From the NCBI GenBank assembly GCA_963693055.1, contig OY843751.1, positions 2,464,001 to 2,528,000 on the forward strand: a stretch of DNA of 64,000 nt, written 5' to 3'. Under the pieces are notes generated by a model, which saw only the letters and a program-made list of their open reading frames with translations, was not told where the DNA came from and did not search any database. This DNA comes from a bacterium. GTDB lineage: Bacteria; Zhuqueibacterota; Zhuqueibacteria; Residuimicrobiales; Krinioviventaceae. A program made the position numbers and the translations under genes. Position 1 is the first letter of the stretch, and each line of letters starts with the position of its first letter. Below are positions 9,519 to 32,473 of this stretch, piece by piece.

Positions 9519-9644
9519 GTTGATAATTATATAGATTTTAACTAGTTTTTAAAAATAATAATCAATATTGGGGGTGTAATTCCAGTTTAAATTCGGAATT
9601 ATTCACTCTTGCAATTCAAATTCTAAAACTCGAGGGGTGTGATT

Positions 9645-16563: not shown

Positions 16564-16773
16564 GATGATTTGTTGAAATTGATCTTATTTTTAACTTGCT
16601 TTTTAAGATTGTAGCAATTATTTTTATTTATATACCTTTCATCTTGAATATGATTATGCCTTCTCAGTTCTTATCCAGATCGACTTGCCAGTTCCTTACA
16701 ATAGATACCGATTAATACTTTACATCATGATTTTTGAAATTTGTTATTTAAAAATATAAATAATGATGTGATC

Positions 16774-18816
16774 ATGAATCCGGTTCCCGTTGTTACGACT
16801 ATTGAACACAAGTGTAAACGCTGTTATTCATGCGTTAGGAATTGTCCTGCCAAAGCTATCAAAGTTGAAAACGGTCAAGCTAAAGTTATGGCCGAACGAT
16901 GTATTGCTTGCGGTTATTGTGTTCGTGTTTGTTCACAAAATGCTAAACAAATTCGAGATGATCTTGCACCAACTTTAGATTTTTTAAAAAATAATACTCC
17001 TGTTGTTGCTATCCTAGCACCATCTTTTCCTGCTGCTTTTCCAGAAAATAATCCAGATACAATTATTTCAGCATTAGCTGAAGCAGGCTTTTCCAAAATA
17101 TTCCCAGTCGCTTTGGGTGCAGACATTGTAAGCTATGAATATCAACTGCTTTATCAATCTAAGGTTATGCCAGTTATTATCTCTTCTCCTTGTCCTGCAA
17201 TTGTGAATTATATAGAGAAATATGATCCTGCTTTGACATTGTGCCTGGCTCCTGTTGTATCACCTATGATCGCTACCGGTCGTTTTCTCAAACAAGCATT
17301 AGGAGAATCTACCCGTATAGTTTTTATTGGTCCTTGCATTGCCAAAAAAAAGGAAATGACAGACAAGAACGTTGCGGGCGTAATTGATGCAGTATTGACT
17401 TTTGAAGAAGTAAAAGCGCTATTTTATCGAATGCATATTGATCCTACAGAATTGCCCCCTCGAGAGTTTGATGGCCCTGAAGTAAATTGGGGAAGGTTGT
17501 TTCCTATATCCGGTGGATTATTGAAAAGTGCTGATCTGCAATCAGATATTATGGATAATGATGTTATCATTACCGAAGGTCGGGACAGGGTTATGGAAAT
17601 TCTTCAAAAATCATCCAATGGTGAAATTGAAGCCAAATTCCTTGATCTTTTATTTTGTGAAGGTTGTATCAATGGACCTAAAATTGACACTCCACTTTCT
17701 GTTTTTGTAAAAAAAGACAAGATTGTTAATTACATTAAAAAGAAGCAGAGTAAAAAGGGTTTTAAAAATTTTATATATCCTATAGATTGTAAACGCAGGT
17801 TCAGTAACGATTATCAGCTAATGCCAGCACCAACACAAAAAGAAATTCAAAATATTTTATATTTCACAGGTAAGCGAAAACCAAATGATGAATTGAACTG
17901 TGGTGCTTGCGGATATAATTCTTGTCGTGAAAAAGCAATTGCAGTTTTTCAGGGACTTGCAGAAGCTGAAATGTGTTTACCCTTTCTTGTAGAAAAACTA
18001 GAAACAATACAGAATAAGCTGGAAACCAATAACAAGGAACTAAATTCTTCAATTGAAGCACTTCAACGCACGCAGGAACAACTTGTGCAATCTGAAAAAA
18101 TGGCCTCGGTTGGTCAACTTGCAGCGGGTGTTGCCCACGAGTTGAATAATCCACTGGGTGGGATTATGGTTTTTGCGAATTTACTGCTTGAGCAAAAAGA
18201 CAAAAATGACCCTGATCTTTCTGATTTGACCCGAATCATTCACGAAGCTGAGAGGTGTAAAGCAATTATCTATGGATTGCTCGATTTTTCACGACAATCG
18301 CACTTGCAAGCTGCTATTGTAAATTTGAATAAAATTATTCTTAGTACTTTGGATCTGGTCAAGCACCAATCATTATTTCAAAAAATAGATATGAAAATTG
18401 AACTCAATCCTACTATTGGTCAAATATTTGCCGATGTGGGGCTTTTACAGCAAATATTTCTGAATATCATTTTCAATGCAGCCGAGGCAATGGAAGGAGA
18501 TGGATGTTTTATTGTTTCGTCTTATATGAGTCAAGATCATAAATATGTCATAGCAGAATTTACTGACACAGGCCCTGGTATGTCTAATGAAATTGTTAAA
18601 CGTATTTTTGATCCTTTTTTTACAACAAAGCCCCCGGGTCAGGGTACCGGTTTGGGATTATCCATGTGCTACAGTATTATCAAGCGTCACAAAGGGGAAA
18701 TCAAAGTGTCCAGCCAGTTGGGAGTAGGCACTACTATAATTATACAATTACCCAATTCAATTGAAATTGAAAAAGATATAACAGAATTATACCCCCATAA
18801 AATTTATTCACTTTAA
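16774..18816 (+). CDS. Sensory (group C-like) [FeFe]-hydrogenase domain fused to an NtrB-type histidine kinase
   Basis: 2x[4Fe-4S] (CKRCYSCVRNCP, CIACGYCVRVC); H-cluster motifs SSPCPAI, GPCIAKKKE, LLFCEGCING; FeS domain NCGACGYNSC...MCLP; H-box AHELNNPL; N, G1, F and G2 boxes (NAAEA, DTGPG, FDPFFTTK, GTGLGL). Alternative TTG start at 16741. Confidence 0.88.
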   Translation: MNPVPVVTTIEHKCKRCYSCVRNCPAKAIKVENGQAKVMAERCIACGYCVRVCSQNAKQIRDDLAPTLDFLKNNTPVVAILAPSFPAAFPENNPDTIISALAEAGFSKIFPVALGADIVSYEYQLLYQSKVMPVIISSPCPAIVNYIEKYDPALTLCLAPVVSPMIATGRFLKQALGESTRIVFIGPCIAKKKEMTDKNVAGVIDAVLTFEEVKALFYRMHIDPTELPPREFDGPEVNWGRLFPISGGLLKSADLQSDIMDNDVIITEGRDRVMEILQKSSNGEIEAKFLDLLFCEGCINGPKIDTPLSVFVKKDKIVNYIKKKQSKKGFKNFIYPIDCKRRFSNDYQLMPAPTQKEIQNILYFTGKRKPNDELNCGACGYNSCREKAIAVFQGLAEAEMCLPFLVEKLETIQNKLETNNKELNSSIEALQRTQEQLVQSEKMASVGQLAAGVAHELNNPLGGIMVFANLLLEQKDKNDPDLSDLTRIIHEAERCKAIIYGLLDFSRQSHLQAAIVNLNKIILSTLDLVKHQSLFQKIDMKIELNPTIGQIFADVGLLQQIFLNIIFNAAEAMEGDGCFIVSSYMSQDHKYVIAEFTDTGPGMSNEIVKRIFDPFFTTKPPGQGTGLGLSMCYSIIKRHKGEIKVSSQLGVGTTIIIQLPNSIEIEKDITELYPHKIYSL

Positions 18817-18868
18817 TACCACTTAAAACTTACTTTAATGATTTTTAATTAGTATATTTTGTAATTAT

Positions 18869-18886
18869 CTGTGAAAAAAATCACAA
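18869..18886. promoter_or_regulatory. Rex/CRP-type operator 1 (CTGTGAAAAAAATCACAA)
   Basis: 12/14 match to the Rex consensus TTGTGAA-N4-TTCACAA and an exact TGTGA-N6-TCACA; just upstream of the -35 box. Confidence 0.65.
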
Positions 18887-18902
18887 ATTTTACAAAAAAT
18901 AC

Positions 18903-18931
18903 TTGCTTTTCTGATATTGATTTCTTATTAT
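18903..18931 (+). promoter_or_regulatory. Sigma70-type promoter of the hydrogenase operon
   Basis: TTGCTT (18903)-17 nt-TATTAT (18926), between two operator palindromes. Confidence 0.6.
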
Positions 18932-18940
18932 TTATTAGAG

Positions 18941-18958
18941 TTGTGAAAAAAATTACAA
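18941..18958. promoter_or_regulatory. Rex/CRP-type operator 2 (TTGTGAAAAAAATTACAA)
   Basis: 12/14 match to the Rex consensus; just downstream of the predicted +1, a repressor position. Confidence 0.65.
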
Positions 18959-19177
18959 CTTGTCCTTTCTTATTCTAACACTCTACTATTTCTTTTGGGG
19001 CCACGGTCAACCATCCTCAAATTTTGGCCCATTCCAATACTTGCGACTTGTGTGTATTGCAAAAGCACGGTGTGGATATATACTATTGGAACTGAACTGA
19101 TCGGTATTTAAAAATTCATTACTCTGATTTTGATTATTGTATTTCGATCTAGAGCCACTATTATGCTTTGAGGATTG

Positions 19178-19345
19178 ATGATGCACTTTGATTTGAAGTC
19201 TATTCGGGACAATTTTTTTACATCACTCCGGTTGAATATTATTCCGGTATTCAGGAATTCTCATATTCAGAACTTTTTTAATTTTATTCGTGATTTAATT
19301 TTGAGATCTTTAGCCTTTGTAATTTTATTGGAGGCAATAAAATGA
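19178..19345 (+). CDS. Putative 55-aa leader/small protein, not in the ORF track
   Basis: GAGGA at 19170, ATGATG at 19178, open frame MMHFDLKSIRDNFF...VILLEAIK; the stop overlaps the next start as ATGA (19342-19345). Confidence 0.35.
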   Translation: MMHFDLKSIRDNFFTSLRLNIIPVFRNSHIQNFFNFIRDLILRSLAFVILLEAIK

Positions 19346-20409
19346 TTGTAAATGCTGATGATTTTATCAAGTTTTTAAAAACTTGTCAGGAATCAAAATT
19401 GTTAGGATACGAACAGGCAATTGTACCTGTTGTATCGGCTAATCCTAAAAACAAAGAACTTGTTTTTTCTCCTGTTAATACTGAACGCACTATTGAACTC
19501 GATACCACCCGGACCATTGATCCTTTGAAAAATCTGTATTATGTTCCTCGGGAAAAAATTTATCCAACTGAATTCAAGAATATCAAACGAATAATCGCCG
19601 GTGTCAAAGCATGTGATTTAAAAGCCATTTCAATACTCGATAAAGCATTATTGTTAGACAATTTTGTTGATCCTTCTTATGAGCATTGGCGCAATAATAC
19701 ATTGATTATTTCTACAGACTGTTCAGAACCCTCACCTGCATGTCATTGTACTTTAATGGATGGTTCTCCATATCCTAACGCGGGTTTTGATATTAATCTC
19801 TCAAGAGTATTGGGCAATTATCATATAACTGTAGGATCCGATAGAGGAAAACAATTTGTTGAACACATGGCTATGGAAGTAGAGATTGTTGATGCTTTAC
19901 CTGATGTTAAGGATCAGGTTGAAGCAAATCGAAATAAAATGGAAAGATTGATTGAGCAGCTTAACCAGGATTTTGTACGAACTACTGACTATGAAGAAAT
20001 AAGACATGACAGTATTAATGTATGGCAGCAAAGATCAAAGGCTTGCGTTGGCTGCGGTGCTTGTACGAATATTTGTCCTACCTGTTATTGTCTTATATTA
20101 AATGACGAGTCCAAAGCCGAACAGTTTATCAAAGTCAGATCACAGGATTCCTGTCAGTTAAATGGGTACGCTCGTGTTGCAGGAGGTGGGACTCCACGTC
20201 CGCAAATGTTTTCCAGGTTTCGAAATAGATATCTGTGCAAACTTTTATTTATGAAATCAAATTTTGGAGAGATCGGCTGTACAGGTTGTGGACGATGTAC
20301 TGAAGCTTGCCCTGCTCAAATTGATTACCGTCAAGTTGTAGAGGACATTGGTCATGAAACAGCATTTGAAAAAGTTTCTCAGGATAAATTAGAGGGAGAT
20401 GAGTTATGA
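19342..20409 (+). CDS. AsrA/HydB (sulfhydrogenase beta)/FlxB-like 4Fe-4S dicluster protein
   Basis: GVKACD, DCSEPSPACHC, CVGCGACTNICPTCYC, RxxDSC, RFRNR and CTGCGRCTEACP. Confidence 0.85.
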   Translation: MIVNADDFIKFLKTCQESKLLGYEQAIVPVVSANPKNKELVFSPVNTERTIELDTTRTIDPLKNLYYVPREKIYPTEFKNIKRIIAGVKACDLKAISILDKALLLDNFVDPSYEHWRNNTLIISTDCSEPSPACHCTLMDGSPYPNAGFDINLSRVLGNYHITVGSDRGKQFVEHMAMEVEIVDALPDVKDQVEANRNKMERLIEQLNQDFVRTTDYEEIRHDSINVWQQRSKACVGCGACTNICPTCYCLILNDESKAEQFIKVRSQDSCQLNGYARVAGGGTPRPQMFSRFRNRYLCKLLFMKSNFGEIGCTGCGRCTEACPAQIDYRQVVEDIGHETAFEKVSQDKLEGDEL

Positions 20410-21227
20410 GTAATCCGTATGAGGTTATCCCGGCAGTTGTCTATGATGTGATCCAGGAATCTCCACTCATTCGGACATTAAGGGTAAAACCTGAAAAAGC
20501 AATCCCTTTTAAAACCGGTCAATTTATTGAATTGTCCATTCCTGGTATTGGTGAGGGTCCATTTACACCATCTTCATCACATTATATTAATGAAGAAATG
20601 GATATTACTATAATGAAAACAGGCTTTGTTACTGAATATGTTCATCAGGCCCAGATAGGTGATCGTGTAGGATTACGTGGCCCTTATGGTTCCAGCTATC
20701 CGTTAGATAAATTTGAAAACAAAGATTTACTCATTCTGGGTGGTGGTTGTGGTTTAGCACCTTTACGATCCCTTTTTCTGACATTACTGCATGACGTTGA
20801 AAGATACAAGAGTATTACATTTTTTGCAGGGGCTAAAACTCCTCAGGACTGTATTTATAAGGATTCTGTAACTGAATGGAACAAATATGATAATGTCCGC
20901 TTTGTTCGTTCGGTTGATGTTGTGCCGGATGGAGAGGATTGGGATGAAAATGTGGGCCTGGTTACTACATTGTTAGAACGACTCGATTTAACACCGGATG
21001 GGAATCCTGCCGTTGTATGTGGACCTCCCATTATGATGCGTTTTGGTACAATGGATTTATTGAATTATGGATTTAAAGAAGAAAATATCTATTTATCGAT
21101 GGAAAAAAAAATGTATTGTGGTTTTGGACAGTGTCGTCATTGTGTAATGGGCGGCTATTATGCCTGCAAAGATGGCCCCGTATTTTCTTATGCTGATATA
21201 AAGAATGAGGAGGACATTTGGGAATGA
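20406..21227 (+). CDS. AsrB/HydG (sulfhydrogenase gamma)/FlxA-like FAD/NAD(P)-binding [2Fe-2S] oxidoreductase
   Basis: GQF, RGPYG, GGGCGLAPLRS, CGPPIMM, EKKMYCGFGQCRHC...CKDGPVF. Confidence 0.9.
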   Translation: MSNPYEVIPAVVYDVIQESPLIRTLRVKPEKAIPFKTGQFIELSIPGIGEGPFTPSSSHYINEEMDITIMKTGFVTEYVHQAQIGDRVGLRGPYGSSYPLDKFENKDLLILGGGCGLAPLRSLFLTLLHDVERYKSITFFAGAKTPQDCIYKDSVTEWNKYDNVRFVRSVDVVPDGEDWDENVGLVTTLLERLDLTPDGNPAVVCGPPIMMRFGTMDLLNYGFKEENIYLSMEKKMYCGFGQCRHCVMGGYYACKDGPVFSYADIKNEEDIWE

Positions 21228-21727
21228 AACGTCTTTTTATTGATGTGCCCGGCCTGCTGGATGCCAATGTTTCGGCAGAGTCAATAGATTGTGAATACAT
21301 GTTTCATCGTTATAACCATGGAGCATTTTCATTACTTGAAGTTGCGGAATTTGCTTCTTATTGCCGCCAATGTACCGAATCGTTTTGTGTAAATGCTTGT
21401 CCGGTTGAAGCTCTTGAACGTCAACCCTCAGGAACAATTAAACGTTTCAATATGAGATGTGTTGGCTGTAAAAGCTGTATTTTAGCTTGTCCTTTTGGGA
21501 CTATATTCCCCGAAGTTATTAATTACATAACAGCAAGATGTGATTATTGTTTGAACCAGTTAGAGGCTGATCCGAATTATCAACCGGCATGTGTCAAATC
21601 GGCTCCGCACGATACTTTTGTGATGAAAGACATTGAACAAGAGAATCCGAAAGAACATGTCTATCTATACGGAGAACACCTGGCCGTTAAAAGTCCAAGC
21701 TGGCGTTATAAGGAGGGATTGGTATGA
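21224..21727 (+). CDS. HycB/CooF/DmsB-like 4Fe-4S electron-transfer protein
   Basis: CRQCTESFCVNACP, CVGCKSCILACPFG, RCDYC...PACV; ATGA overlaps at both ends. Confidence 0.85.
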   Translation: MKRLFIDVPGLLDANVSAESIDCEYMFHRYNHGAFSLLEVAEFASYCRQCTESFCVNACPVEALERQPSGTIKRFNMRCVGCKSCILACPFGTIFPEVINYITARCDYCLNQLEADPNYQPACVKSAPHDTFVMKDIEQENPKEHVYLYGEHLAVKSPSWRYKEGLV

Positions 21728-22653
21728 ATCTGGAATTGATTTTCTTTTTGTTGATATTCCCCGGCTTTTTATTTACCAGCATTCTGGGGATGACTGTTGG
21801 TTGGATTGATCGCAAAGTCTCTGCAAGATTTCAATATCGTGTTGGCCCTCCATTTTTACAGAACTTTAATGACTTTTTCAAATTACTGGGTAAGGAAACC
21901 ATTATTGTTAAAGACAGTGTGCACTCCCTTTTCATCTCTGCACCGTTTATTGCGTTTGCTGTGTTGGTGTTATTGTCTACCATCATAGGTGTTGCTTTAT
22001 TTTTTAATCAGGGCTTTGGCGGTGATTTGTTTGTTATCATGTATCTCTTGATGGTTTTTTCTGTTATGGTTGTATTGGGTGGTTCTGCAACCGGTAATGT
22101 CTATTCAAGTATTGGAGCTGGCAGAGAGATAAAATTATTGCTGGCTGATGAACTGGTTTTCATTCTAATCTGTTTGGTACCTGTCATTAAATCCGGTTAT
22201 CAACTTGATCTCCTGGGAATACTTACCGCCCAAGCACAAAGTGGAGTTTTTATCAATTCATTTTCTGGTGCAATTGCCTTTGTATTAGGTCTATTGTGCA
22301 TACAAGCCAAAATGACACTGCCGCCATTTCATATACCCGAAGCTGAAACTGAAATAGTTGAAGGACCCTTTATGGAATACAGCGGTCCACCACTTGCTTT
22401 CTGGAAATTGAACCATTTTCTCATGTGGGTGATTTTACCATTTTTACTGGTACTTTTGTTTATGGGTGGCTTTAATCTGCAAGGAATGGGTATCCTTTGG
22501 GCAGTACTCAAATATCTGCTTATCGTTGTTTTGATGATTATCATTAAAAATACAAACCCCCGTATCAAAATAGATACAGCATTAAACTTTTTCTGGAAAT
22601 ATGCTACCCCCTTGGGACTCGTTGCAATCATTTTAGCCGTGTTAGGAGTGTAA
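21724..22653 (+). CDS. Membrane-bound hydrogenase subunit, complex I subunit 1 family (NuoH/HycD/MbhM-like)
   Basis: DRKVSARFQYRVGPP...DFFKLLGKE and PFHIPEAETEIVEGPFMEYSG; multi-TM. Confidence 0.9.
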   Translation: MNLELIFFLLIFPGFLFTSILGMTVGWIDRKVSARFQYRVGPPFLQNFNDFFKLLGKETIIVKDSVHSLFISAPFIAFAVLVLLSTIIGVALFFNQGFGGDLFVIMYLLMVFSVMVVLGGSATGNVYSSIGAGREIKLLLADELVFILICLVPVIKSGYQLDLLGILTAQAQSGVFINSFSGAIAFVLGLLCIQAKMTLPPFHIPEAETEIVEGPFMEYSGPPLAFWKLNHFLMWVILPFLLVLLFMGGFNLQGMGILWAVLKYLLIVVLMIIIKNTNPRIKIDTALNFFWKYATPLGLVAIILAVLGV

Positions 22654-22655
22654 AT

Positions 22656-23075
22656 ATGGGATGGTATAATAAACGTCTTGCCAAATCGATATGGGTGTTT
22701 CATGTGAGCGCATCACCCTGTAATAATTGTGATATAGAAGTATTGGATCTGTTGACACCCAAATATGATCTTGAACGATTAGGGATCAAGCTGGTAGGCT
22801 CGGTACGTCATGCTGATGTTTTGCTGTTGAGTGGTATTATTAATCAAAAAGTGGCACCACGGGTAAAGCAGCTATATGACCAGGCTCCTAAACCCGTATT
22901 TGTAGTGGGAGTCGGTACCTGCCCATCCGGAGGCAGTTGCTTCAATAACAGTTACAATAAAGTCATGTCACGAGAAGATGTAATTCCCATTGATCTCTAT
23001 ATCCCCGGATGTCCTCCCAAACCGGAGGCTATGATTGAAGGTGTTGCAAAGCTTTTGGAGGTGCTGAATGCCTGA
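22656..23075 (+). CDS. Group 4 [NiFe]-hydrogenase small subunit (NuoB/HycG/MbhJ-like)
   Basis: CNNCDIE, RHADVLL, GTC and IPGCPPKPEA (single 4Fe-4S). Confidence 0.92.
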   Translation: MGWYNKRLAKSIWVFHVSASPCNNCDIEVLDLLTPKYDLERLGIKLVGSVRHADVLLLSGIINQKVAPRVKQLYDQAPKPVFVVGVGTCPSGGSCFNNSYNKVMSREDVIPIDLYIPGCPPKPEAMIEGVAKLLEVLNA

Positions 23076-23499
23076 TGTGAAATCTTTTATCGATAAAATG
23101 GGTGATCGAATAACCAATACGGTTGAAAAACCATTGCGTCTCTATTTTGAGGTTCCTGCTGAACATGTCAAAGAAGTAACGGGTTATCTGTTTAATGAAC
23201 TAGGGTGCCGGTTATCAACAGCAACAGCTACCGAAGTATATAGGGGAATTGAAGTATTGTATCATTTTTCTGATGATGAAACCGGTCAGTATTACTGTCC
23301 CCGAGTTGTTATGACAGACAAAGATAGTCCCACAATGCCTTCAATAACTCCTATTGTTCAGGGTGCGGAATGGATTGAAAGAGAGATGAACGAGTTTTGG
23401 GGAGTAATTTTTACAGACCATCCTAAACCAGAACGCCTTTTGTCAAAAGACCATCCCGAAAATCTGGATAAACCCTTACGCTTCAGGAGGCTGTCATGA
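23068..23499 (+). CDS. NuoC/MbhK-like hydrogenase subunit
   Basis: LYHFS...PSITP...AEWIEREMNEFWGVIFTDHP. Confidence 0.88.
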   Translation: MPDVKSFIDKMGDRITNTVEKPLRLYFEVPAEHVKEVTGYLFNELGCRLSTATATEVYRGIEVLYHFSDDETGQYYCPRVVMTDKDSPTMPSITPIVQGAEWIEREMNEFWGVIFTDHPKPERLLSKDHPENLDKPLRFRRLS

Positions 23500-24695
23500 A
23501 TGTTAATGGAACCACCAATACTGTTCCGGTAGGTCCTTTTCATCCGCTTTTGGAAGAAGCTGAATACTTTAATATCGTTGTTGATGGTGAAACCATTGTT
23601 GACATTGATATTGATATAGGCTGGATGCACAGAGGCCATGAGTATCTTTCTGAACAACGCACATTTACCCAGTCCATTTACCTGGTTGAACGTATATGTG
23701 GAATTTGTTCCACTTCGCACCCCCTTGCATGTGTGCATGCTATTGAGGATATAGACAATATTGAAATCCCATTGAGGGCACGTTATATTCGCACCTTGGT
23801 TGGCGAATTGGAACGTATACACAGTCATTTGTTGTGGCTGGGTCTGGCCGGTCATTTTATTGGTTATGATACATTGTGGATGTGGTCATGGAAATACCGA
23901 GAGCCTATTTTGCAAATGTTTGAGATTATCTCCGGTAACCGCAACCATTATGGAATGATGCGGGTAGGAGGCGTTGCACAGGATGTGGATCCGGATAAAA
24001 TACCCATCTTGATTGATCATATGGATGAAATTGCTCAAAAGATGGACATGATTGCCAAAGCTGCCAATGATGATCCGGTTTTAAAATCACGTCTTGTCGG
24101 AGTTGGTGTGCTTACTCATGAAGATGCGATCAATTATTGCGCGGTAGGTCCAACGTCACGCGCATCGGGTGTACCTGCGGATGTACGTAAATCAGAGGAT
24201 ACTGACGCTTATTCTTTGATCGATTGGAATGTCATCGTCCTTGAGCATGGTGATGTTTATGACAAGCTGGTCGTTCGTGTATTGGAAACCGTTGAATCGA
24301 TCAAGATCTGCAAAATCTGTCTGGAAAAGCTCAAAACCGTGCAAGGTCCGATTCTAAATAAAGTTAAGGAAATTTCACCTGGGGAGGGTATTGGTAGATA
24401 TGAAGCTCCACGTGGTGAAGTTTTTCATTATATTCGTTCAGATGGCACTAACAGGCCTATTCGCCACAAGGTACGTGCCCCGAGTTTTGTTAATATTCCA
24501 ACCTTTGCTGCAACATGCAAAGGCGCTTCACTTGCAGATGCATTAATTACTACTGCTTCTGTTGATCCGTGTTATTGTTGTACAGAACGATCCTTACGTG
24601 TCAAAGATACAGGTTCAAATGTTCTGGATGTGGATTTACTGGAACTTTCCCGAATAAAGACCAATGAAATCAGGAGGGAGATCCATGGAGTTTAA
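23496..24695 (+). CDS. Group 4 [NiFe]-hydrogenase large subunit (MbhL/HycE-like)
   Basis: GPFHP, GWMHRGHE, L1 ERICGICS, ELERIHSHLLW, EAPRGE, L2 DPCYCCTER followed by a ~34-aa C-terminal extension. Confidence 0.95.
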   Translation: MNVNGTTNTVPVGPFHPLLEEAEYFNIVVDGETIVDIDIDIGWMHRGHEYLSEQRTFTQSIYLVERICGICSTSHPLACVHAIEDIDNIEIPLRARYIRTLVGELERIHSHLLWLGLAGHFIGYDTLWMWSWKYREPILQMFEIISGNRNHYGMMRVGGVAQDVDPDKIPILIDHMDEIAQKMDMIAKAANDDPVLKSRLVGVGVLTHEDAINYCAVGPTSRASGVPADVRKSEDTDAYSLIDWNVIVLEHGDVYDKLVVRVLETVESIKICKICLEKLKTVQGPILNKVKEISPGEGIGRYEAPRGEVFHYIRSDGTNRPIRHKVRAPSFVNIPTFAATCKGASLADALITTASVDPCYCCTERSLRVKDTGSNVLDVDLLELSRIKTNEIRREIHGV

Positions 24696-26496
24696 TACGC
24701 TGGTTTTACTTGTTACTGTCCCTCTGGGGATTGCTGTACTGAATCTGGTTTTACCCACATTACTACAAAAACTGTCAATGGTTGTGGGGACATTGAGTTT
24801 AATGTGGTTTTCTTTTTTGCTCTATAAAAGCGGCAATATGGTTTGGGATATGAATGATCAGGTGTTTTTACAAACTACACCCTTGTCGGTTTTATGTATT
24901 GTATTTGTTCAAATTATTTCCTTTATCATTCTGCTATTTGCGATAAAAGGTATGAATCCTGATCTTGAGCACAGGTTTTTCATTTTGTTTCCATTAACTA
25001 TTGCCTTAAGTAATGGTGCGTTGGCGAGTGATCATAGTATCTTTTTTCTCATATTTTGGGGGTTTTCAGGTGTGTTGCTTTATCTGTTTGGTGTAATGTC
25101 CGGAAATGGAGATGCATCTCAATCTGCTAAAAAGACATTCATGATTATTGGTGGTAGCGATGCATTTTTAATTATGGGCTTTGCTATTTTGTGGACCCTG
25201 CAGCCCGGTTCCAACTGGTCTTTAAACGCATTAAATGTTCCTCTCGATAGTGGCATGTCATGGTTGGCATTGATATTTTTACTTTTGGCTGCTTTTGCCA
25301 AAGCTGGATGTTTTCCTTTCCATACCTGGGTGCCGGATTACAGTCGGGATACGCATGTAGAAGCCGTAGTTTTGCTGCCTGCATCGATTGACAAACTTTT
25401 GGGTATTTACCTGTTGGCCATGATTGTAACTGTATTTTTTCAAGCCACTTTGTTACTGCACATGATACTGATCACTGTAGGTGCGGTTTCTATTATTACC
25501 GCGGTTATGATGGCGTTAACACAGCATGATGGTCGTCGTTTGCTAGGTTACCATGCTGTTAGTCAGGTTGGATATATGGTGCTGGGTGTTGGCAGCGGCA
25601 ATTTGATTGCTTTTGCAGGTGGGTTGTTCCACATGATCAATAATGTGTTATACAAAAGCGGATTGTTTCTTTCTATGGGTGCGGTTGAGAAAAAGACCGG
25701 TACACATGATCTTGATAAACTTGGTGGACTAGCTCGCTGTATGCCTTTAACATTCATAATGGCTTTGGTAGCAGCGTTATCTATTTCAGGAATTCCTCCT
25801 TTTAATGGATTTTTCTCCAAATGGATGATTTACCAGGGATTGGTTGAAATGGCTGGTTCCATGGCACCGGGCTATCAGCTTTGGTTATTGTTGTGTTTAA
25901 TTCTGGCTGTCTTTGGTAGCGCATTAACCCTTGCCAGTTTTCTGAAATTTATCCATGCTGTATTTCTGGGCAAACGTCCTGAAAAATACAACAATGTTGA
26001 TGAAGCACCAGCTAATCAATGGCTTTCAACCGGAGTTCTGGCATTATTATGTTTGGTTTTCGGATTATTTGCTATACAGGTTCCGCTAAAACTTTTTATA
26101 CTTCCCATTGCGGGTGTTTCTATAGAGTCCCTGCCATTTATTGGATTATATCAGCCGGTTATTATTTCTATACTATTTTTAATAATGCTAATCTTTGGTT
26201 TATTGATATATCGTACTGCCCGCACTGTTCGGTATGATCAAAATTATATTGGTGGCATGCCGGCCCATGAAAAATACCGCGTTTCCGGTACCGGATTTTA
26301 TAACGAAATACGTCGCATGTCTCCGCTCAAAGCATTGTATGATGCTGCTGAGAAAAAGATATTTGATATTTATAATCAGGGAGCCGGTATTACCAATGGT
26401 TTTGCGGCCTTGTTCCAAAAAGCCCATCCGGGTCAGTTACAGTTGTACCTGTTGTATATGATAATCGGTTTGTTGATTTTTATTTTCCTTATTTAG
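24685..26496 (+). CDS. Antiporter-like subunit (MrpA N-terminal part/NuoL/MbsH'-like) with C-terminal lateral helix
   Basis: AGGAGG before ATG 24685; KAGCFPFHTWVP, RRLLGYHAVSQVGY, HMINNVLYKSGLFL and GIPPFNGFFSKW; hydrophilic tail then a final TM helix. Confidence 0.88.
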   Translation: MEFNTLVLLVTVPLGIAVLNLVLPTLLQKLSMVVGTLSLMWFSFLLYKSGNMVWDMNDQVFLQTTPLSVLCIVFVQIISFIILLFAIKGMNPDLEHRFFILFPLTIALSNGALASDHSIFFLIFWGFSGVLLYLFGVMSGNGDASQSAKKTFMIIGGSDAFLIMGFAILWTLQPGSNWSLNALNVPLDSGMSWLALIFLLLAAFAKAGCFPFHTWVPDYSRDTHVEAVVLLPASIDKLLGIYLLAMIVTVFFQATLLLHMILITVGAVSIITAVMMALTQHDGRRLLGYHAVSQVGYMVLGVGSGNLIAFAGGLFHMINNVLYKSGLFLSMGAVEKKTGTHDLDKLGGLARCMPLTFIMALVAALSISGIPPFNGFFSKWMIYQGLVEMAGSMAPGYQLWLLLCLILAVFGSALTLASFLKFIHAVFLGKRPEKYNNVDEAPANQWLSTGVLALLCLVFGLFAIQVPLKLFILPIAGVSIESLPFIGLYQPVIISILFLIMLIFGLLIYRTARTVRYDQNYIGGMPAHEKYRVSGTGFYNEIRRMSPLKALYDAAEKKIFDIYNQGAGITNGFAALFQKAHPGQLQLYLLYMIIGLLIFIFLI

Positions 26497-26520
26497 TCAT
26501 ACAGGAGCATGGAGGATACT

Positions 26521-27072
26521 ATGCCTGTTGAAACATGGTTGACATTTACATTAGGATTTATGGTTATTGGATCCATTGTAGCGTTGGAAATCAAAGACAT
26601 TCTTTCTTCAATTATTGCCATTGGCATTGTGGGCCTGGCTGTATCGGTTTCATTCCTGTTTTTGCAGGCCCCTGATCTTGCGATTGTTCAATTTTTATTT
26701 GAGATATTTGCTTTAATCATTCTGGTGCGTGCGTTTATATCCAAAGAAAACCACGAGATGGAACCCGTCAAGGCTGGTAAAATGATAACTGCAATATCAA
26801 TCCTCGTATTAATTGCTATTTTTGCCGGCAGTATCCAGTTCTTTCGCTTAATGCCGGCTTTTGGTGATCCGATTTTGGGAACAGCAGCTCACTATTTGGA
26901 AAACGGTGCAGTTGAGACGGGCGCAGCAAATCTGGTTAGCTCAATAATTTTAGATTATCGTGCTTATGATACACTGGGTGAGGTTACCGTTTTGTTTACC
27001 GCTATATTGGGAACCATAACTATTTTAAGAATACGGACAAATTCAAAACAGACAGGAGGTACCGAGTCATGA
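26521..27072 (+). CDS. MbhD+MbhE fusion (DUF4040 + MrpA C-terminal part)
   Basis: LQAPDLAIVQ and NLVSSIILDYRAYDTLGEVTVL motifs. Alternative start 26509. Confidence 0.88.
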   Translation: MPVETWLTFTLGFMVIGSIVALEIKDILSSIIAIGIVGLAVSVSFLFLQAPDLAIVQFLFEIFALIILVRAFISKENHEMEPVKAGKMITAISILVLIAIFAGSIQFFRLMPAFGDPILGTAAHYLENGAVETGAANLVSSIILDYRAYDTLGEVTVLFTAILGTITILRIRTNSKQTGGTES

Positions 27073-27518
27073 ATGATAAGAAAGGAATGACATTGATAGT
27101 AAAAACAGTCTCTCGTCTCTCTGTTTGGTTAATTCTACTGTATGGTATGTATATCATTTTGCATGGACATCTAACTCCGGGTGGAGGCTTTGGTGGAGGC
27201 GTAATCATCGCTTTGGCATTTTTAAACATACTGCTTGCCTATGGTAAAGACTTTACTCAGTCCTGGATCAATATTCATGCATTTGAGCGATTTGAAAGTT
27301 TAAGCGCACTATTGTTCCTCATTATTGGTATCGTTGGTATTGCAACAGGTGTTTCGTTCCTGTTTAATTTTCTTCAACATGGTTCGCTGTTTCATTTGTT
27401 AAGTGCCGGTACAATTCCGGTTTTAAATATTATTATTGGCATCAAAGTATCATTGTCACTGTTTCTTGTGATTTGGGTTTTGGCCGGTATTAAAATAGCC
27501 AAAGGAGACAACGCATGA
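27069..27518 (+). CDS. mnhB: Mrp/Mnh antiporter subunit B (MbhF-like)
   Basis: HGHLTPGGGFGGG signature. Confidence 0.9.
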   Translation: MNDKKGMTLIVKTVSRLSVWLILLYGMYIILHGHLTPGGGFGGGVIIALAFLNILLAYGKDFTQSWINIHAFERFESLSALLFLIIGIVGIATGVSFLFNFLQHGSLFHLLSAGTIPVLNIIIGIKVSLSLFLVIWVLAGIKIAKGDNA

Positions 27519-27853
27519 TCATCTATTATTTGTGTTTTGCGCTCTTTCTTGTGGGAGTGTATGGAGTATTAACAAAACGGGATTTAATTAAAATCATTCT
27601 CTCGGTTGCAATTATGGGGTATGCAGCAAATATGTTTTTAATCCTGTTTGCTTATAAAAAGGATGCCATTTATCCCATTCTCACAAGTACAGAAAATATT
27701 AAAGCCATGGTAGATCCTTTACCTCAGGCGCTAGTTTTAACGTCTATTGTTATTGAGCTGGGTACAACTGCGTTACTGGTAGCACTAGCAGTTAAATTGT
27801 TTGAAAAATATAAAACCTTTGATATTACCAAAATAAGGAGATTGCACGGATGA
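27515..27853 (+). CDS. mnhC: Mrp/Mnh antiporter subunit C (MbhG-like)
   Basis: DPLPQALVLTSIVI signature; 3 TM. Confidence 0.92.
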   Translation: MIIYYLCFALFLVGVYGVLTKRDLIKIILSVAIMGYAANMFLILFAYKKDAIYPILTSTENIKAMVDPLPQALVLTSIVIELGTTALLVALAVKLFEKYKTFDITKIRRLHG

Positions 27854-29325
27854 TTCTACCGACTTTTATTGTCATCCCCCTGGCGGCTGCCTTTCTTATT
27901 ACCCTTATTGCAGGTAAAAAAGATATCTGGGGAATTGCCATTGCACTGGTTGCTACACTAGCGTTACTGATTCTATCCGTTTCCGAATTTATAACATTGG
28001 ATGGTGAAACTCAAACATATGAAATGGGAGGGTGGATTGTTCCAATCGGAATTGTGTTGGTCAAAGACGCATTAACCTGTTTTATGCTTATTATCAGCAG
28101 TTTGATAGCCTTTACATCTTTATTGTATTCCATACAATATATCCGTCATCTTTCAATGGATTGGAAATACTATGCATTGTTTATGCTGCTGCTTGCAGGA
28201 ATGAATGGTGTAACTATTACCGGTGATTTGTTTAATCTTTTTGTCTTTATGGAAGTAGCATTACTGGCCGCTTTTTCACTTGTTGCTTATGGAGGCAGAG
28301 CAGAAGAGTTTGAAGCTTCGTTCAAATACGCTGTAATGGGTGCCGTTTCATCCAGTATTGTGCTTATTGGTATTGCGGTAACATATACCACCACTTCTAC
28401 TCTGACATTGGCTGGTATTGCCAAAGCACTGCATGCTGCTGATCCCGCACTTGCATTATGGATTGGTGCTATATTCCTTGCCGGATTTGGGCTCAAAGCT
28501 GCTGCCATGCCGTTTCATGCATGGCTGCCGGATGCACACTCTTCTGCACCCGCGCCAATATCTTCAATGTTGTCAGGAGTATTGATAAAGGTTTTAGGAA
28601 TCTATGTACTGGTTAGGATATTTTTCAATGTATTGGGAGCGCCGCAACTTTTTATGACTCTGTTCCTGATCATTGGTGGAATATCGGTTGTGATCAGCGG
28701 ATTGCTATCCGTTGGACAATGGGATATAAAACGATTGCTTGCTTATAGCAGTATCAGCCAGATTGGTTATATTTTGCTGGGTTTGGGTTTGGCAACCCCT
28801 TTGGGCATATTGGGGGCGGTTTTCCATATGTTTAATCATGCCGTATTCAAAGCCTTATTGTTTTATAATGCGGGCAGTGTTGAAATGATAACCGGCACCC
28901 GTGATCTCCACAAGATGGGAAACCTGGGCAAGCTGATGCCTGTAACCTCGGCTACTTCATTAATTGCATCACTAGCGATTTCGGGAATTCCTCCTTTTAA
29001 TGGATTTTTTAGCAAGCTTTTAATCATTATTGCGCTTGTACAGGCCGGGCATCCCGTATATGCTATTATTGCTATTGCGGGCAGTTTGTTGACTCTTGCC
29101 GCCTTGATGAAAGTACAACGTCATGGCTTTCACGGAGATGCTGAAATGGTTGAGCCTAAAGAAAAAATTGGCTGGAACATGAATTTAGCCATGATTGTAC
29201 TTGCTGTAATCTGTGTTGTTTCCAGCTTGTTGCTGCTACCCGGCATCAAAGAAGTAACCCTTGATCCTGTTGTGACAGTCATTGTTGAAAATGCAAAATA
29301 TACCCAGTTTGTTATGGGGAGGTAG
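27850..29325 (+). CDS. mnhD: Mrp/Mnh antiporter subunit D (MbhH-like)
   Basis: TGDLFNLFVFMEV, KAAAMPFHAWLPDAH, KRLLAYSSISQIGY, NHAVFKALLF. Confidence 0.92.
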   Translation: MILPTFIVIPLAAAFLITLIAGKKDIWGIAIALVATLALLILSVSEFITLDGETQTYEMGGWIVPIGIVLVKDALTCFMLIISSLIAFTSLLYSIQYIRHLSMDWKYYALFMLLLAGMNGVTITGDLFNLFVFMEVALLAAFSLVAYGGRAEEFEASFKYAVMGAVSSSIVLIGIAVTYTTTSTLTLAGIAKALHAADPALALWIGAIFLAGFGLKAAAMPFHAWLPDAHSSAPAPISSMLSGVLIKVLGIYVLVRIFFNVLGAPQLFMTLFLIIGGISVVISGLLSVGQWDIKRLLAYSSISQIGYILLGLGLATPLGILGAVFHMFNHAVFKALLFYNAGSVEMITGTRDLHKMGNLGKLMPVTSATSLIASLAISGIPPFNGFFSKLLIIIALVQAGHPVYAIIAIAGSLLTLAALMKVQRHGFHGDAEMVEPKEKIGWNMNLAMIVLAVICVVSSLLLLPGIKEVTLDPVVTVIVENAKYTQFVMGR

Positions 29326-29327
29326 GC

Positions 29328-29834
29328 ATGAATTTAAAATTAAAAAGTCGCATTATTGTTTTTATCTTGTCTTTCCTGGTTTGGATTGCGTTAACAAGCT
29401 ATAAAGATGTTCAGGAGATTGTTGCCGGATTGATTGTCGCGTTCATAGTATCCTGGGCTGCCGGACATTTCTTTATCACTACTGAAAAACAGCATGGTAC
29501 AATTAGGCGAATATTTGCAGCCATTCGATATATGTTTAAATTCTTGTTTGAAATGATTCGGGCCAATTTGCATGTAGCCTATATTGTTGTGCATCCTAAT
29601 TTACCTATCAAGCCGGGTATTGTAAAAATAAAATCTAATCTTACCAAAGATTCAGCATTGACCATACTGACAAATTCAATCACACTTACACCAGGAACAT
29701 TAACCATTGATATCAATCCTGATACCAAAGAGATTTATATTCACTGGATTGATGTTTTATCCACAAAAATTGAAGAAAATACCCAAAACATCGGACAACG
29801 TTTTGAACCCTTGTTGATGGAGGTGTTTGAATGA
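29328..29834 (+). CDS. mnhE: Mrp/Mnh antiporter subunit E (MbhA-like)
   Basis: PGIVKI...LTNSITLTPGTLT...YIHWI. Confidence 0.92.
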   Translation: MNLKLKSRIIVFILSFLVWIALTSYKDVQEIVAGLIVAFIVSWAAGHFFITTEKQHGTIRRIFAAIRYMFKFLFEMIRANLHVAYIVVHPNLPIKPGIVKIKSNLTKDSALTILTNSITLTPGTLTIDINPDTKEIYIHWIDVLSTKIEENTQNIGQRFEPLLMEVFE

Positions 29835-30169
29835 GAATCTTGAGATGGATTGTTGGATTCATTCTGATAACAGCTTTTTTTGTATACAATTTTGTTTTTT
29901 ATGATGGCCTTTTGCTCTTTAAACTGATCAATGTCAGTCTGTTTTGTACGTTGTTTGTGCTTTATAGAGTAATTGTAGGGCCTACACCAGCTGACCGAAT
30001 TGTTGCTGTTGATATTTTGGGTGTATTGATTGTGGGTATGCTTGCTATTCTTGGTATGTATTATGATCAAAATTTTTTCCTGGATATAGCCTTGATTTGG
30101 GCGTTATTGAGTTTTATTGCATCACTGGCTTTTTCAAAAATCCTTGAAGGGAGGCAGTTGGATGATTAG
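29831..30169 (+). CDS. mnhF: Mrp/Mnh antiporter subunit F (MbhB-like)
   Basis: RVIVGPTPADRIVAVD...DIALIWALLSFI. Confidence 0.9.
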   Translation: MRILRWIVGFILITAFFVYNFVFYDGLLLFKLINVSLFCTLFVLYRVIVGPTPADRIVAVDILGVLIVGMLAILGMYYDQNFFLDIALIWALLSFIASLAFSKILEGRQLDD

Positions 30170-30500
30170 AGAAAATATAGGCATGGTTTTTATTTTTATC
30201 GGCATTGCTTTTGATTTCTTTGGTGTGTTGGGACTCGTACGATTGCCGGATGTTTATAATCGGCTGCAAGCAGCAACAAAATGCGTAACCTTTGGATCAG
30301 CTGGTATATTGTTTGGCGTGTTTCTGATCTATGGATTTAACAATTTTGGATTCAAAGCTATATTGGGAATTATATTTATCTTTTTAACATCACCCGTTGC
30401 CGCGCATGTCATTTCACGAGCAGCACATCGCAGTGGAATTCCGTTAACCCCGGAAACAGTTATTGACGAGTATCAGAACGATAATGAATTAAAAGATTAA
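30162..30500 (+). CDS. mnhG: Mrp/Mnh antiporter subunit G (MbhC-like)
   Basis: GLVRLPDVYNRLQAATK and TSPVAAHVISRAA; ATG 30162 after GGAGG. Confidence 0.92.
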   Translation: MIRENIGMVFIFIGIAFDFFGVLGLVRLPDVYNRLQAATKCVTFGSAGILFGVFLIYGFNNFGFKAILGIIFIFLTSPVAAHVISRAAHRSGIPLTPETVIDEYQNDNELKD

Positions 30501-30530
30501 TTAAACATTAACCTCTTTTGGAGACGTTAT

Positions 30531-31133
30531 ATGTTTTTACCCAAATTACGTGAAATCAAAGAAGCGCTGACTTCCTTTTTCAGTGCGCCATATACAACAA
30601 AATTCCCGGCAGAACCGTTTACCGCGGCCAAAGAATATAGAGGTCATCCCCGCTATAATGCTGAATTTTGTATTGGTTGTGGTACTTGCTCTCAGGTATG
30701 CCCTTCAGGTGCCATATCATTTGAGGATGATATTAAAAATGCCACCCGAACTTTGACAGTGGATTATAATGTTTGTATAAATTGTGGGCAATGCCAGGAG
30801 CATTGTATTACTGAACGCGGCATAACTCTGACCAATGAGCACTCGCTGGCTTATATGGATAAAACAGTTCCTGAATCTAAAGAATCTTTGGAACGAGAGT
30901 TGGCAATCTGTGAAAGCTGTGGTAAAGTAGTTGCCTGTAAGAGTCATTTGGTTTGGATTAAAGAACGGCTTGGAGCCAAAGCATATGCGCACCCCAATTT
31001 TATACTGCAAACCCAGGAACAGTTTTTTAATCTTGATCCATATCATGTCAAAAGCCAGATCAGACGTGAAGACCAGTTTAAAATGGTTTGCGCAAAATGC
31101 AGGAATATGATTGTGGTTGTAGATGAATTTTAA
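30531..31133 (+). CDS. NuoI/HycF/MbhN-like 2x[4Fe-4S] hydrogenase subunit
   Basis: PYTTKFP...RG, CIGCGTCSQVCP, CINCGQCQEHC, plus extra CESC and CAKC pairs as in HycF. Confidence 0.9.
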   Translation: MFLPKLREIKEALTSFFSAPYTTKFPAEPFTAAKEYRGHPRYNAEFCIGCGTCSQVCPSGAISFEDDIKNATRTLTVDYNVCINCGQCQEHCITERGITLTNEHSLAYMDKTVPESKESLERELAICESCGKVVACKSHLVWIKERLGAKAYAHPNFILQTQEQFFNLDPYHVKSQIRREDQFKMVCAKCRNMIVVVDEF

Positions 31134-31596
31134 TGATTTAAAAACAGCGTTATCACCTTATTATCCCTCAGATATTGTATTTCTTGCCCTGGGCAATACT
31201 TTTAGAGGTGATGATGGTGTGGGAATTATTTTTACTCAATACTTGCAAAATACTCAAGAGTTTAGTTGTGCTAATTTTATCTTTGCATATACTACACCTG
31301 AAAATTATTTACAGCAGATTATTGAAATAAAGCCCAAATTGATTGTTTGTATTGACTCGGCCCGGATGGGGAGCGGGCCGGGGGATATTCAGTGGTTGTC
31401 TCCTTCAATGCTGGATTCATTCAGAATCAGCACTCATGCATTTTCAATTTTAATGATAGAAACGTATCTGAAAAATTTTACCCAGTCTCATTTTTTTTAT
31501 ATTGGGATTGAACCGCAACAAACCCTGCCGGATCAAGGCTTATCTCATATTGTAGAAAATCAATTGGCCCTTTTTTTTAAAACAGTTCTTGTATGA
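31123..31596 (+). CDS. Hydrogenase maturation endopeptidase (HycI-like)
   Basis: LGNTFRGDDGVG, TPEN, IDS, STH and GIEP; last gene of the operon. Confidence 0.9.
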   Translation: MNFNDLKTALSPYYPSDIVFLALGNTFRGDDGVGIIFTQYLQNTQEFSCANFIFAYTTPENYLQQIIEIKPKLIVCIDSARMGSGPGDIQWLSPSMLDSFRISTHAFSILMIETYLKNFTQSHFFYIGIEPQQTLPDQGLSHIVENQLALFFKTVLV

Positions 31597-31672: not shown

Positions 31673-32473
31673 ATGAAATATCCCAACTCTACAATTTTCA
31701 CCATTGTCATGATTTTAGTAAATCTGCTTCTGGCTGGAGAAAAGAATACACATACAATTCTCCAGGAATGGCAGCTTATTTACAAGGAAAATAATGCTCA
31801 GGGTATTACGATTGTATATGATTTAAATAATGATCAGTATTATTATAATGATACAATTAGGGCCAGGAAACAATATTTACCTGCCTCAACATTCAAATTA
31901 CTCAACTCTTTAATTGCGCTTGAAACCGGTGCAATTAAAGATGAAAATGAAGTAATTAAATGGGATGGAGTGGATCGCGGAATTCCTCAATGGAACCAGG
32001 ACCATTGTTTAAAAACCGCCTTTTCCAATTCCGTTGTCTGGTTTTATCAGGAATTGAGTAGACGTATTGGTCGTAAACGCATGCAGCAATATGTAAAATT
32101 GTCAGATTATGGTAACCATGAAATAAACGGAGCATTAGATAGTTTTTGGCTTGATGGACAATTGCGAATAACTCCGCTTGAGCAAATTGAATTTCTAAAA
32201 CGGCTCTATTTTGAGCAATTACCTTTTTCCAAAAGAAATTTAGAAATTGTTAAAAGAATCAGTATTGTTGAACAAACCAATTCTTATACATTGCATGCCA
32301 AGGCGGGGTGGGCAACCAGTGTGTTTCCAAATGTTGGCTGGTGGGTGGGATATCTGGAGCAAGATAATAATGTATATTTTTTTGCTACAGAAATAGATAT
32401 ACTCGATCCACCGGATAGGGATAAAAGAGAAAAAATAACCCGGGAAATTTTAAAATCTATGAATCTTTTTTAA
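31673..32473 (+). CDS. blaOXA: Class D (OXA-like) beta-lactamase
   Basis: Signal peptide; PASTFK, SVVW, YGN, FWLDG, KAG (normally KTG), GWWVGY. Confidence 0.82.
   Translation: MKYPNSTIFTIVMILVNLLLAGEKNTHTILQEWQLIYKENNAQGITIVYDLNNDQYYYNDTIRARKQYLPASTFKLLNSLIALETGAIKDENEVIKWDGVDRGIPQWNQDHCLKTAFSNSVVWFYQELSRRIGRKRMQQYVKLSDYGNHEINGALDSFWLDGQLRITPLEQIEFLKRLYFEQLPFSKRNLEIVKRISIVEQTNSYTLHAKAGWATSVFPNVGWWVGYLEQDNNVYFFATEIDILDPPDRDKREKITREILKSMNLF

Follow-up and report, generated by a model that had tools for sequence, protein, structure and literature searches.

An [FeFe]-type sensor kinase conserved beside group 4 [NiFe]-hydrogenase operons in the Residuimicrobiales

Introduction

Group C1 of the [FeFe]-hydrogenases in HydDB consists of histidine kinase-linked putative sensors, which are abundant, yet their role is listed there as undetermined (PMC5037454). 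Kinase-fused members have been described beside group A3 enzymes in Hydrogenedentota (PMC11406978) and Elusimicrobia (10.1101/765248), and group C1 and group 4g occur in the same Cloacimonadota genomes, with no linkage reported in the available part of that source (PMC8542988). Here we describe a gene of this class, termed S1, that lies upstream of an operon for a membrane-bound [NiFe]-hydrogenase. Both are found in a window of 64,000 nucleotides (nt), the whole stretch of DNA that was analyzed, from a bacterium of the order Residuimicrobiales, phylum Zhuqueibacterota (assembly GCA_963693055.1, contig OY843751.1, positions 2,464,001 to 2,528,000).

The operon type has already been published (PMC6349859). 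A link between group C1 and group 4 is not described in the available parts of PMC11683472, PMC8892533, PMC9324843, PMC5317091 and PMC7382037, and no paper was found that ties a group C1 sensor to a group 4 operon, in a search that did not cover supplements, possibly with gene-context figures. The protein class itself is published.

Results

Conserved linkage of sensor and operon

In what follows, G000 is the window genome, other G numbers are genomes of relatives, and L numbers are examined loci. The sensor gene is:

16774..18816, + strand: open reading frame (ORF) of sensor S1, start codon ATG at 16774 (Pfam domains, motifs and structure model)

A sequence-only reading of the window had placed the sensor on the same strand as the [NiFe] operon and 525 nt upstream of it. 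The coordinates agree; the gap, 18817-19341, is exactly 525 nt. That reading regarded adjacency as the only evidence for a connection, which no longer holds, as the synteny is conserved in relatives, where it had proposed to look. The sample of the order comprises 43 genomes. A group 4 large subunit (counted at E 1e-60 or better) is present in 36 of these and the sensor type in 40, with 81 matches, all of which were examined. The sensor adjoins the operon in 30 of the 36 genomes, contig ends break two, and four show no link. Order-wide, 40 of 49 genes of S1 and its paralog S3 lie no more than 5 kb from genes of a group 4 operon, eight are cut by contig ends, and one is located elsewhere. Thus homologous operons mostly keep the sensor and its orthologs rarely sit beside unrelated genes, the opposite of the pattern that the sequence-only reading had named as refuting its proposal, and this argues for a dedicated link.

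The window-type operon, whose Cys-type large subunit shows 75-81% identity outside the genus, is found in 17 genomes, with a contiguous sensor in 11 and contig breaks in two. The usual order is sensor, REC, REC-PAS-kinase, DRTGG, Rex2, asrA; shortened forms are sensor-DRTGG-asrA (G007, G008) and sensor-asrA (G000, G011). A second operon type, with about 40% large-subunit identity, another gene order and a CGI-stop (selenocysteine, or Sec, type) motif, is present in 19 genomes of the order. All 19 have the sensor directly 3′ of the small subunit (in G010 as a fragment at a contig end), and the same arrangement recurs in all five of the genomes examined in two further families. Sensor linkage thus holds across two non-orthologous operon types.

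Two points weigh against reading too much into these figures. The remaining four genomes with a window-type operon (G001, G020, G026 and G027) have no adjacent sensor, and because kin are not independent, the counts reflect a few stable events and not 70 trials. A scan of genome contigs with the single protein gave just the relative from the same genus. Beyond the phylum, breadth was judged from 40 metagenome loci; kinase-fused homologs follow hydA in four, and none among the 40 adjoins a group 4 operon.

In the second operon type, a TGA interrupts the large subunit where the second Cys of its N-terminal CxxC would stand (L020:5230-5520, L094:3641-3930 and other such loci). These CGI-stop sequences fit the CXXU [NiFeSe] variants known from the literature; group 4 enzymes with Sec, among them those of KSB1, have been described (PMC13582414).

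Three sensor paralogs

A tree of 96 N-terminal domains (quick IQ-TREE run, SH-aLRT support only, fragments under 560 amino acids (aa) left out; the last batch of sensors was assigned to clades by best BLAST hit) separates three clades. S1, the clade of the window gene, has SH-aLRT 98 and 31 rows. S3 (SH-aLRT 99, 15 rows) is in every row 3′ of the small subunit, and S2 (SH-aLRT 99, 20 rows) is in every row 3′ of [FeFe] hydA. Order-wide, 29 of 30 S2 genes are directly 3′ of [FeFe] hydA and one is contig-limited. The S2 of the window genome is 47% identical to S1 and is situated in the [FeFe] cluster at 3.31-3.33 Mb. The conserved linkage and this specialization of paralogs support a dedicated link between S1 and the [NiFe] operon.

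Other sensor-type genes were seen. The window genome carries all three group C types, including a group C2-like fusion of the H-domain with a chemoreceptor (G000:C1:814390-816549) and a Rex2-HydS-SpoIIE-group B locus (G000 4390229-4395747). On a metagenome contig, L064:1294-3516 is, as named from its sequence, an [FeFe] H-domain fused to a sigma-54 activator, and is flanked by hypF on one side and a [NiFe] small/large pair of periplasmic type on the other. In genomes of family f4, a Mur-ligase-family gene is found inside the [FeFe] hydrogenase cluster (L120:13169-14329, with similar-sized ORFs in L122, L123 and L127).

The S1 protein

S1 encodes a soluble product of 680 aa with, in order, Fer4 (2x[4Fe-4S]), the Fe_hyd_lg_C H-domain (PF02906, E 1e-48), an iron-sulfur (FeS) domain, HisKA and HATPase_c (Pfam). 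The H-cluster motifs are SSPCP (P1), GPCIAKKKE (P2) and FCEGCING (P3); the P2 Lys and all four putative H-cluster Cys show no variation across 94 aligned homologs. The C-terminal FeS domain displays a Cx2Cx4Cx16C motif, and the kinase His box is intact. Residue numbering of CpI was mapped by comparison with PDB sequences and by motif, and the roles of CpI residues other than C299, M353 and M497 are general background. The positions equivalent to C299/M353/M497 are Pro/Gly/Leu; together with the Cx2Cx4Cx16C motif, these replacements agree with the signature given for putative sensory enzymes (PMC8163306). An AlphaFold model of residues 1-420 has a pLDDT of 90 and a TM score of about 0.67 to solved [FeFe]-hydrogenases. 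By its architecture S1 is assigned to HydDB [FeFe] group C1-type, kinase-linked putative sensors.

The closest named homologs are mostly labeled candidate division KSB1. Among 8,000 candidates scored, 7,962 matched at E 1e-50 or better, many of them presumably through the kinase part. In two relatives S1 is split into two frames (L045:4345-6587 in G002, L162:6832-9000 in G032), by error or as a pseudogene.

Absence of maturases and the state of the H-cluster

The window genome is one contig, 100% complete, and has seven [FeFe]-domain genes. Its content bears on the proposal that S1, though linked to the operon, has its di-iron site empty and works through FeS clusters only, sensing redox state or O2 and not H2 directly, which we regard as possible but doubtful. 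Several findings favor it and weigh against H2 as the ligand. Family searches of the complete window genome did not find HydE, HydF or HydG, nor is there a BATS-domain protein; tblastn with the maturases of two relatives returned just other GTPases and noise. HydG is above the cut-off in 5 of the 43 genomes of the order, and among 113 genomes of the phylum with at least 90% completeness HydF is present in six and the sensor type in 48. Since the genome is without hydE/F/G, a normal H-cluster cannot be taken for granted as the means of sensing H2. Furthermore, P3 of S1 is one residue short (CxxC, where the standard spacing is CxxxC), the proton-relay Cys is lost, and the standard motifs are described as hardly findable in group C1 proteins (PMC11406978).

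However, the residues of the di-iron pocket are identical in sensors with and without maturases. The equivalents of A230, P231, P324 and K358 and the four cluster Cys are invariant in 40 of 40 NiFe-linked sensors, 32 of which come from genomes without maturase matches. The same genomes hold intact HydA/HndD, and in 25 such proteins from maturase-negative genomes 14 of 14 catalytic positions are invariant, so that the H-cluster chemistry is apparently still under selection. Active maturase-less [FeFe] enzymes have also been reported in archaea and protists (PMC11216029). Because of the conserved residues and these reported enzymes, we lean towards a cofactor that reaches the sensor by a route that does not depend on HydEFG.

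Three other explanations were rejected. Disguised HydE/G are not evident, as none of 28 radical-SAM matches in the genome has a BATS domain; among 15 candidate HydE/G ORFs scanned, eight had other names and seven were without a match at 1e-40. The catalytic HydA is not considered degenerate on account of its P1, TSCSP, as PDB 7Q4V has the same motif. Retention of hydEFG solely for the sensors does not fit, as 4 of 5 maturase-positive genomes also carry catalytic [FeFe] genes; in the maturase-positive G091, an assembly of 700 contigs, only a sensor was seen.

G000 has two intact-looking group A3 [FeFe] operons (hydCBA, hndABCD) and a group B enzyme, and such intact-looking [FeFe] genes persist without hydE/F/G across most of the sampled phylum. 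A separate four-member clade of sensor kinases has a degenerate di-iron pocket (K358Q, A230D) and no adjacent hydrogenase (L101:8981, L103:9176, L109:8795, L110:9145); that of L101 follows an acetate kinase gene. This clade comprises candidate FeS-only redox sensors.

Relay partners and regulators

S1 is an orphan in the window genome, and its presumed relay partners are 0.85 Mb away at the [FeFe] cluster. The ortholog of the REC-PAS-kinase that follows S1 in relatives (by tree and domains) heads the [FeFe] cluster at genome position 3328674, beside a REC gene at 3330140 and an NtrC-type regulator at 3331130. The genome also has REC genes at 3322023 and 3321604 and a REC-PAS-kinase gene at 3320136. 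A search for the cognate regulator, as the sequence-only reading had advised, found no DNA-binding regulator at the window operon, and the NtrC-type protein is the only DNA-binding candidate for the output. That reading had also described a hydrogen island. The pairing of sensor and operon stands, but a self-contained island does not, since the relay, Rex and hyp genes are dispersed.

This layout raises the alternative that sensor and operon are neighbors as a remnant of an ancestral hydrogen super-cluster; S1 would then only hitchhike with the [NiFe] operon and direct its signal to the [FeFe] operon or to genes of general fermentation. Its evidence tells against a dedicated sensor. In the window genome and in the sister genus, the ortholog of the S1 partner kinase is upstream of [FeFe] hydCBA. 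G010 has an apparent run, with one contig break, of [NiFe] operon, S3, S1, sigma-54 regulator, REC genes and [FeFe] hydCBA, and in G001 the two operons are back to back, with S1 elsewhere. The adjoining operons make an ancestral super-cluster plausible as the main rival, and together with the position of the partner kinase they mean that inherited clustering could explain the adjacency. In addition, the 525-nt gap holds its own candidate promoter, so that S1 need not be co-transcribed with the operon. Against this, the [FeFe] cluster nearly always has its own sensor, S2; S1 remained beside [NiFe] genes both where it precedes the operon, as in one type, and where it comes after it, as in the other; and the S1 cassette is followed by hypABF(D) in the g15/g14 genomes. 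On balance, the relic explanation appears rather unlikely.

A further alternative is that the relay acts post-translationally, on the activity or assembly of the hydrogenase, through the REC-only and DRTGG proteins, with Rex as the sole transcriptional input. Most S1 cassettes have only stand-alone REC, REC-PAS-kinase and DRTGG genes, without a DNA-binding regulator, and a sigma-54 promoter was not found: none of 13 asrA regions scanned has one scoring 9 of 12 or more, a result that also counts against transcriptional control by S1, and none was found upstream of the [FeFe] cluster. In all, 61 upstream regions gave two 9-of-12 matches only, both before S1 genes, and the genome background is 0.13 per kb. 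Opposed to this alternative, a sigma-54 regulator is directly 3′ of S1 in G010 and G001 and 3′ of the S3 cassettes in G089-G091 and G070, and rpoN is present in the window genome. We consider a purely post-translational relay improbable. Thus, as for the proposed control of the [NiFe] complex by an [FeFe] sensor, the dedicated link is upheld by synteny, but no regulator or sigma-54 promoter was found at the operon.

The intergenic region

The following features were recognized in the gap:

18869..18886, no strand assigned: Rex-like box 1, 2 mismatches; also fits the CRP/FNR-type TGTGA-N6-TCACA
18903..18931, + strand: candidate sigma-70-type promoter TTGCTT-17-TATTAT between the Rex-like boxes (inferred)
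18941..18958, no strand assigned: Rex-like box 2, just 3′ of the candidate -10, 2 mismatches

TGTGA-N6-TCACA is the CRP-type consensus, and the genome has two CRP-family genes. The candidate promoter scores below the 9-of-12 scan threshold; a TACTTGC...TATAAT-like stretch aligns in G011, G007, G008 and G009. Sites with 2 or fewer mismatches to the Rex consensus used, TTGTGAA-N4-TTCACAA (PMC5317091), number only 69 in the whole 6.5-Mb genome. There are two rex genes, rex1 being preceded by a similar pair of Rex-like boxes, and in 10 relatives the Rex2 gene is directly 5′ of asrA. The boxes are kept in G011, with box 2 partly in G007, and the remaining asrA leaders scanned show no such box even when up to 3 mismatches are allowed. 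Rex boxes are thus plausible but largely confined to the genus. The suggested parallel NADH sensing retains the two boxes and the rex genes in its favor, but little conservation beyond the genus.

No terminator is predicted between S1 and the operon, and read-through from S1 is therefore possible. An Rfam scan of 16400-19500 gave no credible family and one chance snoRNA match. Within the roughly 400-nt asrA leader, 18998-19030 contains a 5-bp helix in five genomes with one compensatory change, which is weak evidence for a leader RNA element, one without an Rfam match.

The [NiFe] operon

The operon, 19342-31596, is tightly packed, its 18 genes being spaced at -11 to +30 nt:

19342..20409, + strand: AsrA / sulfhydrogenase-beta-like FeS subunit (family search)
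20406..21227, + strand: AsrB / sulfhydrogenase-gamma-like FAD, NAD(P)-binding subunit (family search)
21218..21727, + strand: HydN/DmsB-like polyferredoxin (family search)
21724..22653, + strand: NuoH-like membrane anchor (Pfam)
22656..23075, + strand: [NiFe] small subunit, NuoB-like (family search)
23068..23499, + strand: NuoC-like subunit (Pfam)
23496..24695, + strand: group 4 [NiFe] large subunit with both CxxC motifs and cleavable tail (Pfam, motifs, PDB match)
24685..26496, + strand: MrpA/NuoL-like antiporter subunit (Pfam)
26509..30500, + strand: Mrp module MbhDE, MnhB, MnhC, MnhD, MnhE, MnhF, MnhG (Pfam)
30531..31133, + strand: NuoI-like ferredoxin (family search)
31123..31596, + strand: HycI-type [NiFe] maturation protease (family search)

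Its gene content is that of a group 4 [NiFe] operon of the Mbh/Mrp type, with an AsrAB-like NAD(P) module. The large subunit, the sole group 4 large subunit of the whole genome, retains CGIC and DPCYCC, the two Ni-binding CxxC motifs, and is extended at its C terminus. These motifs, the maturation protease and the hyp genes identify the predicted product as a group 4 [NiFe]-hydrogenase and not Ehr or Mbx. Among PDB entries the large subunit is closest to 6CFW_L, the alpha subunit of the membrane-bound hydrogenase, and this match and the Mrp linkage are the basis for candidacy of subgroup 4d or 4g. The genes hypA, B, F, C, D and E are outside the operon, with a hyp cluster at 2.12 Mb; hypD was named by family search, the others from position and motifs.

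Directly 3′ of the operon, 31673-32473 is a gene with a penicillin-binding/transpeptidase domain that resembles class D beta-lactamase and has its own candidate promoter. Elsewhere in the window, a tandem pair of ORFs, each about 1,850 aa long, occupies 3963-15242. The second, which has half that length in G011, resembles a secreted cysteine peptidase carrying repeats and, at its C terminus, a sorting domain.

Discussion

The reading that we prefer is that S1 is a [NiFe]-dedicated H2/redox sensor, likely controlling the membrane hydrogenase; regulation, ligand and output are inferred, and we give the whole slightly more credence than doubt. The S1 lineage travels with group 4 [NiFe] operons and would report H2 or the cytoplasmic redox state. 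H2 would reduce a slow H-cluster that has no proton-relay Cys and carries the Met-to-Gly and Met-to-Leu changes, and the change would reach the kinase from the C-terminal FeS cluster by way of a coiled coil. The phosphate may then go to the REC protein and the REC-PAS-kinase, which are 3′ of S1 in relatives and at 3.33 Mb here. In the window genus Rex would add NADH-dependent repression by way of the two boxes. Without hydEFG, the cofactor would have to arrive by a route other than the known maturases.

A broader scheme can be offered tentatively, and we doubt it more than we trust it: in this order each hydrogenase class may have an [FeFe]-type sensor of its own, with S1/S3 reading H2 for a membrane [NiFe] or [NiFeSe] complex and S2 for the bifurcating [FeFe] enzyme, and all of these sensors may receive an H-cluster-like cofactor independently of HydEFG, by a route in use across most of the phylum. 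A trio of paralogs sorted by hydrogenase class provides named kinase-receiver pairs and target operons, and opens the way to testing H2 sensing by group C1 and the regulation of one metal class by the other. That hydEFG is missing nearly throughout the phylum, beside intact catalytic and sensory [FeFe] genes, makes a maturase-independent supply of the H-cluster testable in bacteria. These [FeFe] operons without hydEFG are possibly more important than the sensor linkage itself.

Comparison with known systems

The membrane-bound hydrogenase (MBH) of the P. furiosus type (PDB 6CFW) is like the window operon in joining group 4 subunits with an Mrp antiporter module. Group 2b comprises regulatory [NiFe]-hydrogenases (PMC5037454). 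Their components are HoxBC-HoxJ-HoxA or HupUV-HupT. The sensor part of S1 is, by comparison, an unrelated [FeFe] fold, fused with its kinase in one chain. What the two share is a hydrogenase-type sensor coupled to a histidine kinase near a [NiFe] operon.

The Mbh-Mrp-oxidoreductase complexes of Saganbacteria and Elusimicrobia share with the window operon the group 4 subunits, the Mrp module and genes like asrA/asrB and CooF/HydN; the window operon is without their molybdopterin subunit, and the available parts of the sources describe no sensor with those operons (PMC6349859, 10.1101/765248).

Two described sensory proteins, TmHydS (group C, M2f) and TamHydS (group D, M2e), share with S1 the N-terminal 2x[4Fe-4S], the loss of C299, the changes of M353 to Gly and M497 to Leu, and the C-terminal Cx2Cx4Cx16C cluster (PMC8163306). 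S1 differs from both in its direct kinase fusion, the lack of PAS, Pro at C299 and a CxxC third motif, and TamHydS, unlike S1, is encoded upstream of a bifurcating [FeFe] enzyme (PMC8163306). The nearest likeness is to group C1 itself, in the fusion of H-domain and HATPase kinase, the non-standard H-cluster motifs and the regulatory neighbors, including Rex. However, in the available parts of the sources group C1 proteins have group A3 [FeFe] neighbors or come without context, whereas S1, in a host without hydEFG, accompanies group 4 [NiFe] operons.

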